A stretch of 57,132 bases of DNA, filler included, from Ionaspis alba (Eukaryota): NCBI GenBank assembly GCA_964255285.1. It is 4 parts of 4 records of this genome, joined end to end, with 100 filler letters (N's around TTAATTAATTAA, not from the genome) between each part and the next. Parts side by side here need not be neighbours in the genome. Positions count along the whole stretch, not along the records: positions 28,641 to 42,840 come from CAXUUL010000432.1; 3 more parts are not named here. One strand, given 5' to 3'. The position numbers and the translations under genes were made by a program. The notes beneath the pieces were generated by a model that was given only the letters and a program-made list of their open reading frames with translations, had not been told where the DNA came from and searched no databases. Position 1 is the first letter of the stretch, and every line of letters begins with the position of its first letter. Of the stretch, positions 31,659 through 42,940 are shown piece after piece.

Positions 31659-33703
31659 ATGGTGAAGGGATCCGGTGCGCTTGCTAGAGTACGCTCTTTC
31701 CGTTCGAAACCAAGCAGAGAAGCCTTCGACAAACCAGATGAAAATCCAGCAACTATCACTGTTTCCACAGTTGTTCATACCGAGGCGGAACCGAACACCC
31801 AACAACAGGACTCGTCGCGGACATCACCCTCTTCCAACCATTTGGGTAACAGCAGCCCTCGACGAGGCATGGCGATAGATCAGGAACCTACATTTATGTC
31901 TCCACAGAAGATAGCGGCTCAACAGAGGAACCTCGATGCTCAACGACCGCCACACCTGCAGTTGTCGAAGAATCATCATGTAGTGGAGGAGGATATGATT
32001 GGAATGGCGCTGGGAAGTCCAAGTCAGGGTCCTTTCCCTATACTGCCCAGTAGTGCTCCGACTACCAGGCCTTCGTTCACCGACAGCACGTTGGGTTCTT
32101 CTGCTTCCAGCCAAGCATGGCCTGGCGATTCACCATATACGGAGGAAGCTATCAAATTGAAAGGGAAATGGAAGATGTTCGGAGGCATTTTTGGAAAGAA
32201 AGGTGTCGCATCACCCACATCGCCATCTTCACAGTTCTATCAGTTGCAGCTCTCTCCTGCTTTGTCGGATCAAGATTCTCAAGCTAGTCCAGCTCAGACT
32301 CCATCTCCTCGAGGAGCTCGCGGTTTCCTTCACCATGGGGACTCTGGTAGTGCCAATGGAGATGCTACAAGGAAGAAGTTGAGGAGCCGAAAGGAATCTC
32401 GTCCAGAAGTCAAGCCAGATATTGTACGAGCAAAGAGTACACCGCTAATCCGAAATGAAAGACAACTGCCCACTCCTCCACCTAAAGATTCTCAGCCAGA
32501 TAGGAGAAGTCCACAGCTTTGGACAGATGGAAAGCCCATGATGCTCCAGGTGGAGATACCAGACGTTGCAATGGAACGTTACAGCATTATGTTTGGAAAT
32601 GTCCTACAGCAAAGGCCACCCTCGTTGATGGTACGGAGGCAAGCGCCATTGGAGAAGCTAAAGTCGCTCGGCAATGACAAACATGAAACGGTACAGAAAA
32701 TTGCTCTCTAATTGCCCGAGACTAGTGTATTGATCTTCAATAGCCTGAATATTCGGCTTCGAGCGATAGCCTGCTGAGACCGACCCGACGAGCGACTTCG
32801 CCCTCGCCTAGGGCCAAATCACCTTGTTTCTCTCTCTTCCCACCGTCCTCTCCAGATCCCAACCGAGGTGCATCGCCACAACCTTCTCGTAGAGCAATAC
32901 CACTCTCTCGCTCTGCTACAGCTCCTGGATCTCTTTCCCCTGCTCGGGCCACTTTTGATTTCGCGACGCCTACTTCTCGAGATAACGACAGCCACGAGAT
33001 CAAATTGCACCACCCGAGGCTACCTTTCGGCCCGCCAGACCACTCAAATGAGAGTATAGACTCTACGACTATTACTTCAATATCGGGCGATTTCAAGAGC
33101 GCTCACGCTGCCCCTACTTTCCCTGACGAAACGCTCGTTACGCCTCAGATCATTACATCACCGCCGCCATACAGTTCTTCTATATCACATGATACCCGTT
33201 CTAATGATTCACATTCGAGTCAACCATCCCCGAGAAGTTCATCGCTTCCTGAGAACCACCCAAGCCATATCCAGCACAAGACCGCCAATGTCGTAGATCA
33301 TCCAATCAACAGCAACACAAACCCGCCTCACGCACCTGTCCAGAAAAGTTCTCCAAAAAAACAATCTGACAGACCCGTCTTCAAACCACGCACAAGCTCT
33401 CAAAGTCCCAGAGATCTCCCTAGACCTATCAACGCACCCCATAGCATCTACAGCCCTCATATCCAGAATCCGTTATCCTCGTCTCCACCATCTGCGGCCG
33501 AAATATCTGTTGCGCGACAGATCTCGGTGTCGCGTCGACAGCAGCAACTCTTGGTGCCTATAACGCCAAAGACAGTGCGGCCGCCGAAAAGAGCTACGAT
33601 TGTGGATGTGGATGCCCAGGCTGATGGGGATGCGGGTGGGAACGGAGGCAAGACGGGGCATGTGAGTCGAAAAAGTCATCATTTGATTGTTGAAGAGGCT
33701 TGA
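31659..33703 (+). CDS. Uncharacterised Ser/Pro-rich fungal protein (2 exons)
   Basis: ORFs 31653-32711 and about 32743-33703 can be joined by a GT..AG intron at about 32691-32742. Short conserved-looking islands: IGMALGSP, WKMFGGIFGKK, LQVEIPDVAMERYSIMF and EISVARQISVSRRQ. Confidence 0.7.
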
Positions 33704-34598
33704 TTGGGTGGCGATCTTTTCGGGTCTTGCTTCTTCGTGCTTTGCGTTGGGGAGAATGGGCAGCAGGGTTCTAGGATTTCGCATGTGTGTAGGCATTTTC
33801 TTGTTACAGCATCTTGGGAGGAGAAGCTTGTGGTTGATGGGGATGTGAGATGCATAGCGAAACTTTGGCTGGAACATCGTCACGCTGTGCTGTTCTTCGA
33901 TTGGATTGTTTGTACTGCATCGCTTTGGATGGGTGACGATGTTTGACGGGAACTCGAGACCGATAGTGTTCTTGCTGGCGATTTCTCCATGGCTTTTTAA
34001 GTTATATTATTCCCCCATTGTACAGGATTGGAGAAATTGAGAAGACTTTGTGCAGATATCTGATCACCGTTCTTTGCACCGTTTCATTCTGCTGGTCCAT
34101 TAGAATCGTAAATTGATATAAATTTAAATCTATGGACAGTACGTGGAAGTACTGCGATTATTGGCCTAGATTCTGTCATCTGTAGCTTCAAACGCAAAGC
34201 TTTACCAATCTCTGGTGCAATATGATACCCAATGTTGAAGAAAAGATATATTGCAGAGCCGCACATGATTGCAGCTAGGCACGTGACACTTGTAGACCGC
34301 ACACCCACTAGTCGTCCGCGGCATAACATGCTCGGGATCTATGTTCCATCAGCTTCCCTCACAGGTATGTATAGAGTCTTGCCCTCATAGATGGCGCCTC
34401 CTTGCTAATAAGAGATAGTGTAAATATGTCATGCCATAGCACTGCATCTCTTCGAAGGACAATTGAGCTGTTCAACCGCTAAAGACTGGACCCACGCAGT
34501 GCGTCCCACACATATTCGAAGCTCGTCAGAGAAGAAAACATTCAGCCCAACGTGCAGGCTTGAGTGACCTGTGAACATATGAAAACCCGTCTTAGATC

Positions 34599-36503
34599 AT
34601 GGAGGACATGCCATTCGCTGCCAATGGCATCACAGAGGCGGAAACTTTAGCCAATGCTCCCTCAGGAACCAAATCTCCCCACGATGGAGGAGTCGAAACC
34701 GAATCGAACAATCCTCCGCCAGAGATGAGCTCAGAAGAACTACCAGTACCAAAACGAGACATTAGTGATCTGCGCAACCCATTGCCCAACCTTCTAGAAA
34801 TGCGCCGGCGCCTTTTCGAAGTCAGAGAGACGATCGAGCTCAAGGTCGATGAGTTCGAGCGATATTGGCCCTATGTCGATAATGTATGGGTGAGGCAGCA
34901 CAGAGCCGGCACAGACAAAAGTGGTCGGATCACTACGGATTACTATGCTTGTCGCCTGCAACGGCCAACCTATACGCCGCGAAAAGCGCCGCAAGAAAGA
35001 CCAGATGGCAAGCCATTGCGCAAGAAACAGACCAGGGAGGGCGGCACATGCCAAATGCGAATCAAAGCCGTGCGCTACGAGGGCGGGTTTTCCAAATACA
35101 CCATCACCAAAGTCGGTGCCCACGAACATACACACGATCTGGACCACATGGACAGCATCAAGCGCAATACCGTGGTCATGGAAATCGCCCGCGCGGAAGT
35201 CATGAAAGGCTTCATGCCCGCCTCCGTCTTCACCATTATGAGCGAAGACGAAGCCAAGCTCGCCGCAGCAGGTGGCCGCCACCTCAATCGCAACGACGTC
35301 CGCAACGCCTCCCAATCCTGGCGACAAACCCACCGGGACGCACTGAACGTCCACCCAGGCTACAAATACGACCACGGTAACGGCATCGTGCGGGACGAGT
35401 CCTTCCCTCCACCTCCGATACCACAGGCTGCACCCGACCTCAGTATGCTCGACCCAGCTCTAGTCCCGTCTCCACCGCTCCCCACACCACCCACCTCGAC
35501 ATCCACCTCTCTCCTCCCTCCAAATGCGCTACACTTCCCACCCCAAACCGCCTCTCTCCTCGACCCCTATCTCCCACCCACCGACACAGCCCTCTCCCCT
35601 GGTAGCCTCCCCTTCGTAACCCTCACCTACGCCACCTCCCTCGACTCCTTCCTCGCCATAGCACCCGGCACCCAAACCCACCTCTCAGGTCCCGGGTCCA
35701 AAGCACTAACGCACTACCTCCGCGCCCACCACGACGCAATCCTCATCGGCGTCGGCACAGCACTAACCGACAACCCCACCCTCAACTGCCGGCTCGCCGG
35801 CGCCGGTGGCTATGGCGGTGTCGGGTGGGACTCACAGCCGCGCCCCATCATCATCGACCCCGGGGCACGCTGGCTTCTGACGCCCGACTCCGCGGTCCTG
35901 CGGGCCGTGGCAGAGGGGCGGGGAAAAGCACCGTGGATAATCATCGCGCCGGGCTTCGCGATCGATCCCGCGCGACTGGAATTGCTGAAATACTACGGTG
36001 GGAAGTACGTCGGCTTGCCGGAACTGGATAAGAAATACCGGCTCAGCTGGGAAGGCATTTTCCGGGCTTTGGCCGCCGAGGGGATCAGAAGCGTGATGGT
36101 TGAGGGCGGGGGCGTGGTGATTAATGAGTTGCTGCAGCCGGAATACAAGGAATTGATTAGGAGTGTGGTTGTTACGGTTGCGCCGACTTATCTTGGCACT
36201 GGGGGGGTGGTGGTTTGTCCGAGTAGGAATTTGGATGAATTGGGGAGGCCGAGGCCGGTGGTTAGGTTTAGGGATGTTAGGTGGGTGCCCCTAGGGGAGG
36301 ATGTGGTTATGTGTGGGAGGCTGGGCAACGGGGAGGCAAACGCGGGAGAGCGGGGCCAGGTGAATGAGGTGGAACAGCGAGTGAGGGAGGAGGATGGAGT
36401 GCAAGATGGACAGGAGGCTGAAGGTTCTAGGGGGATGGATGAGCAAGGGGGAGAGCTGGGTGCGGCGAATAATGTTGTAATGGGCAAGAGCTTGACGCTG
36501 TGA
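34599..36503 (+). CDS. Fusion protein: N-terminal Mutator/FAR1/WRKY-like C2H2 DNA-binding domain + C-terminal RIB7/RibD_C pyrimidine reductase
   Basis: Single 634-aa ORF. The C-terminal half has PFVTLTYATSLD, THYLRAHHDAILIGVGTALTDNPTLNCRL, PRPIIIDP and SVMVEGG. The N-terminal half has YYAC-x32-C-x25-HTH. A Pro-rich linker joins them. Confidence 0.85.
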   Translation: MEDMPFAANGITEAETLANAPSGTKSPHDGGVETESNNPPPEMSSEELPVPKRDISDLRNPLPNLLEMRRRLFEVRETIELKVDEFERYWPYVDNVWVRQHRAGTDKSGRITTDYYACRLQRPTYTPRKAPQERPDGKPLRKKQTREGGTCQMRIKAVRYEGGFSKYTITKVGAHEHTHDLDHMDSIKRNTVVMEIARAEVMKGFMPASVFTIMSEDEAKLAAAGGRHLNRNDVRNASQSWRQTHRDALNVHPGYKYDHGNGIVRDESFPPPPIPQAAPDLSMLDPALVPSPPLPTPPTSTSTSLLPPNALHFPPQTASLLDPYLPPTDTALSPGSLPFVTLTYATSLDSFLAIAPGTQTHLSGPGSKALTHYLRAHHDAILIGVGTALTDNPTLNCRLAGAGGYGGVGWDSQPRPIIIDPGARWLLTPDSAVLRAVAEGRGKAPWIIIAPGFAIDPARLELLKYYGGKYVGLPELDKKYRLSWEGIFRALAAEGIRSVMVEGGGVVINELLQPEYKELIRSVVVTVAPTYLGTGGVVVCPSRNLDELGRPRPVVRFRDVRWVPLGEDVVMCGRLGNGEANAGERGQVNEVEQRVREEDGVQDGQEAEGSRGMDEQGGELGAANNVVMGKSLTL

Positions 36504-36770
36504 ACGACTGGGAGCTAATCTATTGGGCCGGGGGTTTCGAAATTCATGGTCTTTGCAGCGGGAGTTGAGAGATGTCTTAGTTGCAGAGCTTCTACTTAGA
36601 TGCTACTGACTTCTTGCTCTAAGAGCTTTACGATATCCATCATACGCTTGCAAACAGCCGTAGCTGATTGCTGGGTATCTCTGAGAACATAATCAAAGCC
36701 ACATGCGCCAGTTCGCTGTGAGCGTCACCCTCCTGAATCAAGCTGCCAGATAGGTGAAGATACGGACAGC

Positions 36771-38498
36771 TCAGTCCTCTTTGACCTCAGTGTCCTTCGC
36801 ATCCACCATCTCAAAATCATGCTCTGCATCCTTCTCCTTGTTCTTTGCATCCTCTTCCTCCTCATCGTCAGTATCCTTCATCTCTTCGTCCCCATCAACA
36901 CGAGCTCTGTGCTTTCCACGAAGCTTTACCTCCCCAGGAAGAATCTCACGCAGGCTCAAATCAACCTTGTCAACCGTTTCTTCTTCAGCACCAGGGGCAT
37001 TAGCCGCCAATCCGAGTTGAGCCAAGTGCTTGCCACGACGAGGTTTGAGCTGGATCTTCGATTTGATGGGATAGAAGTAGGCAGCCTTCTGGCGAGGAGC
37101 AGGTCCTTCTTCGTCTCCAACGGTGGCAGCGTGGGCGATATCATCCTCGTTCTCGGAGTCGTGGAGCGCAATGACGACTTCCTCATAGGGATCCTTAGCC
37201 TGAGTGCGTAAGCCGGTTTCATAGTCGCGGACGAGATCGTAACGGAAAGAGTCCTTCTCGCCGCCCTCGGAAACGTTGGTGTACAGCGCGGGATCGGTAT
37301 GGTCAGGATCATGCACATCAAACTTCTTCTTGATGTTCTCCACCTTTGCGTCCTCGTTTGGAAGATAGAAGCTGTAGGTGAAGGGCGGAGGACCAGGGTG
37401 CGGAACGTGTTCGCGGTCGGCTTTGTGAGCTTCGTGCTTGGTGGTCCATTGCGCGATCTGCTCATCACCGAGAGCGTGGTGACGAAGCAGTCCAACATCC
37501 ATGCGCTCATCGTGTTTGTCAGTGACGTCGGTGGGCTGACCAGCGATTTTCAGGACAGTGTAGCCTCCATCATCAGTGAAGCCATCGAGATCGGGAATGA
37601 GAGGATAGAAGTCGACGGGCTTGAGGTGAGGTTTTGTGGGATGAACGGGATTGTTCCATGCATCGAGCTCTGCTGGAGTGGGGTTGGCTCCACGCACGTT
37701 CTCCTTCGTGTCTGGCCCTTTGTACGCGTCTTCGGGGTTGGCAATGTCGAAGCTTTTGATCACTTCGCGTAGCATGTTCTGAGGGTCATCTTTTGAGTAA
37801 TGCTTGGCCGGACGACGCTTTGGTGGATTGGCAGCATTCGCAGCAGCTGCTGCTGCACGACGTCCTGGATCTTCTGCCACGTATTGAGTGCGACGTAAGA
37901 AGCTGATCCCACCGGCTTCGGTTTTGGGTTTGCCCATAGACTTGAGAGGTCGTAGCAGCTTACGGTCGCGTGGATGGACGGGAGGTGGAACGAGCGGTGC
38001 TTGAATAGCTATATATATACGATCAGTAAAGTGAACGTCTGGTCGAGTTTTGCAATGGCCAAGTGCATTGGGTCACATACAGCTCTCGTCACCATGAAAG
38101 ATGCCGGGCATCCCAACCAAATCGATCGGCATACCCAAAAAGGCATCAGCTTCAATGTTCGGAGGCTGCTCGCGGATGAGACGGTTGGCGTAGGCCGGTG
38201 AGGTATACTTCGAGAGACCTTCATACGGAATCTCGAGAAGCTTCGGAGCTCCCGGTGGAGGTGGAAGAGCATTGCTGTAGCGTTGACGAACAATGTAATC
38301 TTGGTGGACGACGCGCTCTTGACGTTGACCTTTGGGGTCAGCCATGGTATCAGTATCCTCGAGAGTGGGCTCGGGCGGAGTGTAGTGTTCGTCGTTCTCA
38401 AGAGTCTGGTCTGAAGGTGTGATCTCTCCTTCGTCGAACTCGATCTCAAACACACCTTCGACAGGAATCGAAGCTGCTTTGCCGGTGTTGTCCGCCAT
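36771..38498 (-). CDS. PAF1: RNA polymerase II-associated factor Paf1
   Basis: HQDYIVRQRYSNALPPPPGAPKLL, DAFLGMPIDLVGMPGIF and SFLRRTQY. Intron near 38000-38077. The start is either 38498 or 38345. Confidence 0.92.
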
Positions 38499-41704: not shown

Positions 41705-42840
41705 CTAAATGTCCTCTGGCGCCTCCACATCCGGACTCATGGGCAGATACCACAAACTGATTCTCGTCGCCAACTTCCAATAATCCTTCGGATCTGTCGC
41801 TCCAGCCTCGGGCTCCGACGACTCATGCGAGAACATCACCCCATTCCAGATATCGAAATGGCCCGATGCCGGCGCAGTACCACCAAACGCAATATCAAAG
41901 GCGATGATGCCGTTATGATTGACTAGCTCAGGATGATCGGCAGGGTTAAAATCCTCGCCAGATCTTTTGTTTTTGATGTCGAAGTCAGGCTCGCCCCAGA
42001 TGGTTGTGAGATATTTGCGCATTTCCTTGACGCGGATAGCGTATGGACGGCCGTCTTTGCAGATGATGGTCAGAAGGCCGTTGAACTTGCCGGGCTTCGG
42101 CAGGAGAACGCCAGAGTAATTCAAGCCGCGGGAGATACGCATGGTGCACGTGTTAGAGAACGCGCTGTTGTTGACCCAAGCGTCATTGAGAGCCCTGAGA
42201 ACTTCTGTGCTATTGGGATGCGAAGCATAGTCCCAATCTTCTCTCTGGAAAGTTTGGAAGTCTGGACGCGGTCGCCTTGCCCCGTTCGCAGCCACGTTAG
42301 ATGCTAAAATAGCACTTTCGGGCATTCCAAAGTTGAGAAGCACGGAACCTTCTGTGGTCGAAGCCTCGAGAGACGTCGGAGCACCATTGTCAGATGCTTC
42401 TTTGGCTGATTTGATGATGCTTTGAATGGCTGGGTCCTCGTGAGGGGCTTTGGCGGGCTGGGAGCCAGACATGTCCTGGAGCACTTGGACGGCTTGTTTC
42501 TCAGCTTCGGCATTAGGAATAAGTTGCTTGTCCTTCGCACGAGCAATGGAAGCCAACTTCTTGTCAGCGTCCGCGACAGCCTGCTGCTTGCCAGCGGTGT
42601 CGGCCATCTTGAGCGCTGCAGCAGATGCGCCAAAGCTGGTGGCGAGCGAAGTGGCGGCTGTCAGTCCCGCTGTAGCTAACTGCTGCGTTCCGGCAAGGCC
42701 AGCCATGTCACGGAATGCATTGGCGTTCTGCACAGCATTCAGGGCACCTGCCACCCCTTGAGGTCCAGGAGCAGGTGTAGCGTTGGACAGATTGATGATC
42801 GTGGATGGGAAGGGTGTGGGATCTGTCTTCGGTGGATCTG
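41705..42840 (-). CDS. 5'-truncated large protein ending in a Tae4-family (T6SS amidase effector, NlpC/P60-like) peptidoglycan endopeptidase domain
   Basis: The frame is open to the contig end. The C-terminal ~180 aa read RPDF...FSNTCTMRISRGLNYSG...DGRPYAIRVKEMRKYLTTIWGEPD...GIIAF...ASGHFDIWNG...ISLWYLP. This is collinear with the Tae4 pattern as I recall it (RPSF...NAC-x-IRMS...Y-x-x-RV...YL...G-x-PD...KGII...GH-x-x-LWNG...LW-x-LP). Confidence 0.85.
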
Positions 42841-42940
42841 NNNNNNNNNNNNNNNNNNNNNNNNNNNNNNNNNNNNNNNNNNNNTTAATTAATTAANNNN
42901 NNNNNNNNNNNNNNNNNNNNNNNNNNNNNNNNNNNNNNNN
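42841..42940. other. Artificial contig linker N44-TTAATTAATTAA-N44
   Basis: Same structure as the other linkers; 12-mer at 42885-42896. Confidence 0.97.

Follow-up and report, generated by a model that had tools for sequence, protein, structure and literature searches.

A Rib7 reductase of Ionaspis alba and related fungi with a probable transposase-derived zinc module at its N-terminus

The fused gene and its enzyme half

The window examined here, meaning the whole analysed stretch of 57,132 nucleotides assembled from four records of the Ionaspis alba genome (GenBank assembly GCA_964255285.1), contains at 34599..36503 on the plus strand, in the part derived from CAXUUL010000432.1, a gene for the riboflavin-pathway reductase Rib7 that is preceded in the same frame by an additional domain. 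It is highly probable that this gene encodes a Rib7 reductase fused to a domesticated C-C-H-H zinc and helix-turn-helix (HTH) module of a Mutator-like element (MULE), that the catalytic domain and the ends of the transposon have gone, that the fusion arose a single time, that strong purifying selection has maintained it in Lecanoromycetes and Chaetothyriales, and that its enzyme is intact. The gene is a single open reading frame (ORF) of 634 amino acids (aa) with no internal stop, the ATG being the first codon after an in-frame stop and the stop-to-stop frame beginning at 34596. Its parts are as follows, all predicted roles being those discussed below.

34599..36503, plus strand: whole fused gene, 634 aa, stop codon at 36501-36503
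34599..34760, plus strand: N-terminal tail, aa 1-54, of low conservation and of varying length among homologues
34761..35138, plus strand: N-terminal helices and four-stranded WRKY-GCM1-like zinc module, aa 55-180
34950..34952, plus strand: Cys118, predicted zinc ligand 1, conserved in at least 90% of 64 family members and invariant in 54 fused homologues
35049..35051, plus strand: Cys151, predicted zinc ligand 2, invariant in the 64-sequence family alignment and in the 54 fused homologues
35127..35135, plus strand: His177-Thr-His179, the predicted HxH zinc ligands, at least 90% conserved (64 family members) and invariant (54 fused homologues)
35139..35393, plus strand: HTH-like helical sub-domain, aa 181-244, ending LNRNDVRN..WR, and conserved beta-hairpin GYKYDHGNGIV, aa 254-264
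35394..35522, plus strand: disordered linker rich in Pro, Ser and Thr, aa 266-308, with a predicted local distance difference test score (pLDDT) below 50 in the whole-protein model
35523..36338, plus strand: Rib7 domain (2,5-diamino-6-ribosylamino-4(3H)-pyrimidinone 5'-phosphate reductase), aa 309-580, by Pfam RibD_C and PDB matches
36339..36500, plus strand: C-terminal tail, acidic and Gly-rich, aa 581-634, unconserved

The original prediction, made from the letters of this stretch alone, had described one uninterrupted ORF in which a cysteine- and histidine-containing N-terminal part is separated from RibD_C by a Pro-rich linker, and this layout was borne out by the ORF reading. The motif coordinates given in it were exact (C118 at codon 34950, C151 at codon 35049 with the spacing C-x32-C, H177-T-H179 at 35127-35135), the LNRNDVRN that closes the helical segment was located at aa 229-236, and the linker at aa 266-308.

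The C-terminal half is matched by Pfam RibD_C over aa 338-570 (E 9.8e-31; 107.5 bits against a cut-off of 24.1; profile positions 1-196 of 197), in agreement with the complete domain first placed at about 35608-36325, and the closest solved structures by sequence are the yeast Rib7 reductases 4ha7 (E 4.8e-37) and 9l1f (E 1.4e-36). The SLD, IGVGT..DNP and VEGG motifs by which the domain had been recognised were also found, and align to 4ha7. Residue equivalences were obtained by combining the 4ha7 alignment (chain numbering offset +5) with the mutational study of the yeast enzyme ScRIB7 (PMC3631187). In this way G384-x-G386-T387, D391 and E502-G503-G504 align to ScRIB7 G76-x-G78-T79, D83 and E180-G181-G182, among which T79, D83, E180 and G182 are necessary for activity and G76-x-G78...G181-G182 make up the NADPH pyrophosphate motif (PMC3631187). 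G384, T387, D391, E502, G503 and G504 are invariant across the 54 aligned fused homologues; G386, aligned to 4ha7 in the same way, stands outside the invariant and near-invariant lists of that alignment. T343, at least 90% conserved in the fused homologues, falls on ScRIB7 Thr35 (Thr, not Lys), the position that sets the fungal/archaeal substrate preference (PMC3631187).

The Rib7 domain is 53-57% identical to the plain Rib7 proteins of Aspergillus, Penicillium, Dothideomycetes and Leotiomycetes, which at 265-290 aa are small single-domain enzymes, as had been supposed for ordinary fungal Rib7. Because the catalytic residues are kept and the identity to plain Rib7 is of this order, the C-terminal half looks like an orthologous and, as far as its sequence indicates, fully competent Rib7. 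Compared with plain Rib7 (ScRIB7 in 4ha7/4ha9; about 270 aa in Aspergillus), the C-terminal 270 aa of the fusion are orthologous, with the NADPH motif and the substrate Thr kept, whereas about 300 extra residues, comprising the tail, the zinc/HTH module and the linker, lie ahead of them; the plain proteins begin about 4 residues ahead of the conserved L-x-F-P motif.

The linker, of about 14-95 aa, is uninterrupted and devoid of a conserved Met in 54/54 aligned fused homologues. There is no conserved internal start, and therefore Rib7 can be made only as the fusion in most species. Within the linker, a motif [MIVF]-x-D-P-x-L is kept in Lecanoromycetes (here MLDPAL, window positions 35445-35462, aa 283-288), and in Herpotrichiellaceae (Exophiala, Fonsecaea, Cladophialophora) GVFGRLEP is kept in its place; either could act as a short linear interaction motif or form a hinge contact from one domain to the other. 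The C-terminal tail is missing or dissimilar in homologues. In the 706-aa orthologue of Exophiala dermatitidis (P0423) it is a low-complexity sequence of about 100 aa rich in Gln, Pro and Ser. Low-complexity tails of this kind are typically seen in activation domains, though they prove nothing.

Ancestry and predicted fold of the N-terminal module

The ancestry of the module was addressed by an exhaustive HMMER search of 1.84 billion representatives with aa 45-270 alone as the query, by which 402 relatives were retrieved at E<=1e-3, 131 of them at E<=1e-10, and Pfam architectures were scanned for 130 of the best 150 among these 402. RibD_C was present in 12/130, and a MULE and/or ZSWIM RNaseH-like core, situated 60-90 residues downstream of the module, in 12/130, the latter proteins having E-values to the query of 1e-11 to 1e-20. 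Among these transposase-type relatives are P0150 (E 1.9e-20), P0156 (1.4e-19), P0204 (2.9e-14) and P0240, a MULE transposase of Ascobolus immersus. The transposase matches cover the beta part as well as the helical part, and therefore the module as a whole descends from a transposase N-terminus; homology of aa ~55-265 to the N-terminus of fungal MULE transposases is thus supported by sequence comparison. Other enzymes were found in 7/130 relatives (GFA three times; isochorismatase, GST, DAO-type FAD oxidoreductase and HD once each), and the remainder consisted of one protein with a sub-threshold FAR1 match, two with weak C2H2 matches and 96 without any family.

Note that in other fungi the module is thereby found at the N-terminus of small-molecule enzymes from at least five further families, in P0138, P0163 and P0221 (GFA), P0172 (isochorismatase, Pseudogymnoascus), P0202 (GST, Morchella), P0205 (DAO-type) and P0223 (HD). 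Some of these fusions sit on short contigs and their gene models are provisional, but together the sequences suggest a recurrent "module plus enzyme" architecture among fungi.

In the 64-sequence family alignment C151 is invariant, and R119 joins C118, H177 and H179 in being at least 90% conserved; the ligand pattern is thus no product of chance. Over Lecanoromycetes and Chaetothyriales, 20 positions of the module are invariant, including R69, R141, K188, R189, R235 and R242.

AlphaFold2 modelling of the module with the 64-sequence alignment resulted in a pLDDT of 91 and a predicted template modelling score (pTM) of 0.82. The model consists of short N-terminal helices, strands at aa 97-105, 111-118, 154-160 and 166-172, a basic 32-residue insert between strands 2 and 3, that is, between the two Cys, and a helical bundle at aa 181-244 after the sheet, followed by the conserved hairpin. 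The modelled four-stranded antiparallel sheet with its C-C-H-H (C..C..HxH) ligands is the arrangement by which the WRKY-GCM1 fold is recognised. Foldseek comparison of the model with the PDB yielded zero matches at E<=1e-3; the rows of high probability are WRKY domains (5w3x_D 0.99, 7z0r_B 0.96, 6j4e_B 0.96, 6j4f_B 0.94), and AFT2 on DNA (4lmg) has a probability of 0.41. The HTH-like part resembles transposase DNA-binding domains in structure comparison. In the ESM Atlas, mostly unnamed fungal clusters (0.94) were returned, together with a cluster of which 12% is GCM (0.90) and FAR1/ZSWIM3_N clusters (0.85-0.86), all of which serve as leads only. An assignment of the module as a WRKY-GCM1-type zinc sheet followed by a helical sub-domain, predicted with high confidence, is supported by these models.

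Distribution, history and surroundings of the fusion

A search with the module gave 199 matches at E<=1e-3, and among the best 120 of these all 120 carry RibD_C, with lengths of 437-724 aa. The named fused proteins of Lecanoromycetes come from Xylographa, Trapelia, Ptychographa, Lignoscripta, Lecanora, Mycoblastus, Hypocenomyce, Icmadophila, Circinaria, Xanthoria and others, the module being 83-85% identical to its Xylographa and Trapelia counterparts. A more distant fused protein was found in Lithohypha guttulata, and a search with the module of that protein returned RibD_C in 60/60 proteins; the named Chaetothyriales with the fusion are Exophiala dermatitidis and other Exophiala, Capronia, Cladophialophora, Fonsecaea, Rhinocladiella, Phialophora, Cyphellophora, Knufia and Neophaeococcomyces. 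The survey across Pezizomycotina for which the original prediction had called thus places the fusion in Lecanoromycetes and Chaetothyriales, and plain Rib7 of 265-290 aa without the module in the listed Eurotiales (Aspergillus, Penicillium), Dothideomycetes and Leotiomycetes. At the same time, a second, stand-alone RIB7 did not appear: among the best 120 of 1616 matches in a search for shorter proteins, no named plain Rib7 belongs to Xylographa or to other Lecanoromycetes except Bachmanniomyces, and the fusion is probably the sole Rib7 of these fungi.

The module tree was built from 132 rows after 38 of 170 candidates, which did not cover most of the profile, had been dropped. All 32 Rib7-fused rows form one clade in it (SH-like approximate likelihood ratio test, SH-aLRT, 99) together with one 364-aa protein without a Pfam match, which is possibly truncated; the MULE-bearing rows are scattered over the remainder of the tree, and the isochorismatase row is separate from the Rib7-fused clade. 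In the tree of the Rib7 domain (74 rows), 17/20 plain Rib7 group together (SH-aLRT 97), with every fused protein outside that group. Taken together, the single clade of fused modules and the Rib7-domain tree fit one fusion event. The three short Rib7 forms that fall elsewhere in the Rib7-domain tree are P0278 (308 aa), P0279 (335 aa) and P0282 (321 aa); P0278, from a 2.1-kb contig, and P0279, from Bachmanniomyces, nest within the fused Lecanoromycetes, and P0282 is placed beside two unnamed fused proteins. These short forms are probably truncations or secondary losses.

Of the named lecanoromycete Rib7 proteins among the above 120 of 1616 matches, P0279 (Bachmanniomyces sp.) alone lacks the module, and its N-terminus (..GELKQLTLAAGVAGHQLK..) faintly recalls the module stretch ..EAKLAAAGGRHLN..; the module may have decayed here, or the gene model may be truncated. 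Additionally, the plain Rib7 of Eurotiales group with those of Dothideomycetes, Leotiomycetes and Sordariomycetes (SH-aLRT 97), apart from the fused proteins of Chaetothyriales, though both orders belong to Eurotiomycetes, a split that could reflect a shift in rate or constraint once the fusion had formed, or else a history of greater complexity.

Conservation is distributed unevenly along the fused protein. For 20 Lecanoromycetes compared with the I. alba protein, the module averages 75% identity, the Rib7 domain 69% and the linker 24%, and for 33 more distant fused proteins the means are 40%, 52% and 15%, respectively. In three near-identical metagenome alleles, 5/218 codons of the module, 8/259 of Rib7 and 14/95 of the tails and linker are variable; these densities were used since the substitutions are too few for a dN/dS of each domain. 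Judged from the sequences, the module is clearly functional, and within Lecanoromycetes it is more strongly constrained than the essential enzyme to which it is attached.

These results bear directly on whether the fusion is real. Were it an artefact, adjacent genes or exons would have come into frame by chance, or a short Rib7 started internally would be the only functional product, and the few short forms P0278, P0279 and P0282 might be cited in its favour. However, the frame is open through the linker in all 54 homologues in spite of linker lengths from 14 to 95 aa, as well as on three independent metagenome contigs; conservation is higher in the upstream module than in the enzyme; a conserved internal Met is lacking; and P0278, nested as it is among fused Lecanoromycetes on a 2.1-kb contig, is probably truncated. 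The open linker frame, the conservation of the module and the lack of a conserved internal Met largely refute this explanation, and we regard it as very improbable.

The neighbours of the gene are housekeeping genes, namely those for Paf1, an actin-related protein, CK2-beta, Nop52, Mak21, PIG-V, Blm10 and Yme1. A fused ORF of 572 aa that is 63% identical runs uninterrupted on three metagenome contigs and is also found beside Paf1; in this relative (L003) Paf1 lies on the opposite side and in the opposite orientation compared with the window. A MULE transposon that is active or recently dead and has captured a RIB7 fragment in the manner of a Pack-MULE would explain the descent of the module from MULE transposases, but it has next to no probability in view of its surroundings and structure. 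As had been stated at the outset, there is neither a DDE domain nor a pair of terminal inverted repeats (TIRs): RibD_C is the sole Pfam family of the 634-aa protein at E<=1, with no MULE/DDE match (PF10551), and in 33000-38000 only five imperfect inverted repeats (14-20 nucleotides, 75-93% complementary) were detected, none flanking the gene. Moreover, the orthologues extend across two fungal classes in a single clade, the Rib7 part is complete with all its catalytic residues, and housekeeping genes adjoin it, with Paf1 alongside both here and at the 63%-identical homologue. An autonomous MULE or a Pack-MULE is refuted by the missing DDE and TIRs, the single-clade orthologues, the complete Rib7 and the housekeeping neighbours.

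Possible roles of the module and known relatives

What the module does for the fused enzyme is less firmly indicated than its origin. Our best explanation as a whole, in which the architecture described above is combined with a bifunctional regulator, has about an even chance of being correct. Of its two components, the bifunctional protein itself, a dimer with two zinc/HTH modules that would bind specific DNA and regulate transcription, is suggested by the sequence and is a serious candidate that falls slightly short of even. The two modules would be presented by a homodimer of the Rib7 type, and flavin-pathway or linked genes are their most plausible targets; DNA binding or transcription may in turn be tuned when NADPH or the first committed pathway intermediate occupies the enzyme domain. 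The protein would remain a pathway reductase while bound to DNA, and would be the counterpart in a eukaryote of enzyme-regulator fusions like archaeal RbkR. This dimeric bifunctional model is the simplest because the ancestral job of the module is DNA recognition by transposases and because yeast Rib7 is homodimeric (ScRIB7; PMC3631187).

Ligand-gated regulation of the flavin genes by the fused Rib7 is an unlikely extension of this model. We give an equally low rating to its most elaborate form, a one-component ligand-gated eukaryotic transcription factor in which the active Rib7 dimer would report the first committed riboflavin intermediate and/or NADPH/NADP+ to the modules, which would switch flavin genes and perhaps iron- or light-stress genes; it would have arisen once in the ancestor of the lichen-forming Lecanoromycetes and the rock-inhabiting black yeasts, as one case of a wider, hitherto unrecognised class of sensors with a MULE module (GFA, isochorismatase, GST, FAD-oxidoreductase, HD). 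For coupling between the halves there is a hint in the two-domain AlphaFold model (aa 45-585, 541 residues, 54-row alignment; pLDDT 84, pTM 0.78), in which the linker is disordered: a fixed interface between the module and Rib7 is possible since a pTM of 0.78 was judged too high for independently placed domains.

Several observations weigh against the bifunctional model. In Pfam, aa 45-270 match zero families even at E<=10, FAR1, AFT and WRKY included, and among the 64 relatives FAR1 is touched by only two (best 2e-4, 22.4 bits against 28.1) and AFT by four (best 0.043). When the family alignment was run as a profile against PDB sequences, only insignificant bromodomain rows came up (E >=0.24). 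The best-matching chain in the Foldseek comparison, 5w3x_D, is the WRKY domain of RRS1, solved with effectors rather than with DNA, and WRKY-type domains can serve as protein-interaction decoys. The linker, being flexible and unconserved, speaks against a tight coupling of the halves as an obligatory feature, and when the 700 nucleotides upstream of the gene here were compared with those of the 63%-identical homologue L003, shared 9- to 11-mers were no commoner than in 200 shuffles. Apart from this, WRKY (PF03106) does not occur among the 25 families listed of the 36 that module relatives match. Since the module matches no FAR1, AFT or WRKY Pfam model, only the superfamily fold and the transposase ancestry are supported; of the earlier proposal of a WRKY/GCM1-type MULE N-terminus, these two parts stand.

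The main rival is a module that keeps its fold without binding DNA and acts on the enzyme or on its partners, as a regulatory or stabilising domain, a metal or redox switch, or a docking site for riboflavin enzymes. We consider this somewhat unlikely, though it deserves to be taken seriously: high conservation proves only that some function exists, the pTM of 0.78 could mean that the module is packed on the enzyme, the best structural match, 5w3x_D, comes from a WRKY domain that is known to act as a decoy in protein binding, and the joining of the module to several unrelated enzymes could equally mean generic modulation of enzymes. Against these points stand the invariant basic residues R69, R141, K188, R189, R235 and R242 and the kept basic insert, as expected of a surface that binds nucleic acid, and the resemblance of the HTH-like part to transposase DNA-binding domains; moreover, leaving enzymes aside, the module is most closely related to transposases and short solo proteins, which serve to recognise DNA (PMC1702500).

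Alternatively, the protein could be a DNA-binding transcription factor, or an enzyme tethered to chromatin or the nucleus, for which Rib7 provides merely a dimerisation scaffold and its housekeeping activity, with no sensing and no link to flavin genes. The stable homodimer of ScRIB7 (PMC3631187), the long, disordered and unconserved linker and the finding of no flavin genes among the neighbours of the locus are all compatible with such a scaffold, as is the usual need of domesticated transposase DNA-binding domains for a dimerisation partner. This explanation is doubtful; nothing speaks directly against it, but it leaves the repeated pairing of the module with small-molecule enzymes (RibD_C, GFA, isochorismatase, GST, DAO, HD) unexplained.

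The nearest precedent for the preferred reading, that of a bifunctional enzyme and regulator, comes from Babu et al. (2006; PMC1702500), who described stand-alone fungal WRKY-GCM1 proteins and a WRKY-GCM1-isochorismatase fusion in filamentous fungi, and proposed that the enzyme acts as a sensor. That fusion likewise consists of a MULE-derived N-terminal module on a small-molecule enzyme, with no transposase domain (PMC1702500), and the isochorismatase fusion P0172 of Pseudogymnoascus is a sequence relative of the present module (E 1.5e-17). It differs in its partner, which here is Rib7, an essential biosynthetic enzyme probably present as the only copy. In the 2006 survey neither riboflavin nor reductase is mentioned, and of the other enzyme partners of the module isochorismatase alone occurs there (PMC1702500). 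Within the literature searched, it was also the only paper found on a WRKY-GCM1-isochorismatase fusion.

The same superfamily has yielded the transcription factors Aft1/Rcs1, Aft2, Rbf1 and FHY3/FAR1 (PMC1702500). Those factors are not joined to an enzyme, and the present protein stays below the thresholds of the AFT and FAR1 Pfam models. FHY3/FAR1 keep a dead transposase core together with a SWIM finger, both of which are missing here.

Direct fusions of enzymes with DNA-binding domains are common in bacteria and archaea and rare in eukaryotes. In the riboflavin pathway, archaeal RbkR is a riboflavin kinase with a winged-helix DNA-binding domain, an enzyme-regulator fusion (PMC5397151), and Bacillus subtilis RibR is a flavokinase with an RNA-binding part (PMC12542839). 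By functional analogy only, these resemble the fused Rib7 in that a riboflavin-pathway enzyme is joined to a nucleic-acid-binding domain, through which the state of the pathway could control pathway genes; the domains are unrelated, the enzyme step is another one and the hosts are prokaryotic.

A description of the fused Rib7 or of its extra domain was not found in the literature searched, which covered few subscription journals, and passages of a 2025 review of riboflavin regulation (PMC12542839) make no mention of the fused Rib7. In public databases the fused proteins are labelled as Rib7 reductase or hypothetical protein. Beyond the flavinogenic yeasts, little is known of how riboflavin synthesis is regulated in filamentous ascomycetes. 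In principle, a MULE DNA-binding domain that has been domesticated is ordinary; the partner, an essential vitamin-pathway enzyme, the age of the fusion and a conservation higher than that of the enzyme are unusual. The fusion is ancient, being common to two fungal classes or subclasses, presents a clean case of transposase domestication and, if the regulatory reading is true, may link vitamin B2 synthesis to gene control. Black yeasts that are both experimentally tractable and of medical relevance (Exophiala, Fonsecaea, Cladophialophora) carry it, and because Rib7 has been discussed as an antifungal target (PMC3631187), a lineage-specific extra domain on it is of practical interest. Should the module prove not to bind DNA, a well-documented and previously unannotated conserved domain architecture would still be left.

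Two further frames were noted near the fused genes. In L003, between Paf1 and the fused Rib7 gene, an ORF of 191 aa at 1031-1606 on the minus strand begins with MAQFLTDAFEVKVHQSTISRTLKKYGIV and may be the HTH end of a Tc1/mariner-type transposase remnant. In the window, at 41708-42892 on the minus strand, an open frame of 395 aa is matched over residues 245-356 by Pfam Tae4 (type VI secretion amidase effector 4; E 4.5e-19). The Tae4 family is known from bacteria and is unusual on a fungal chromosome, and this frame may be a horizontally acquired peptidoglycan amidase.

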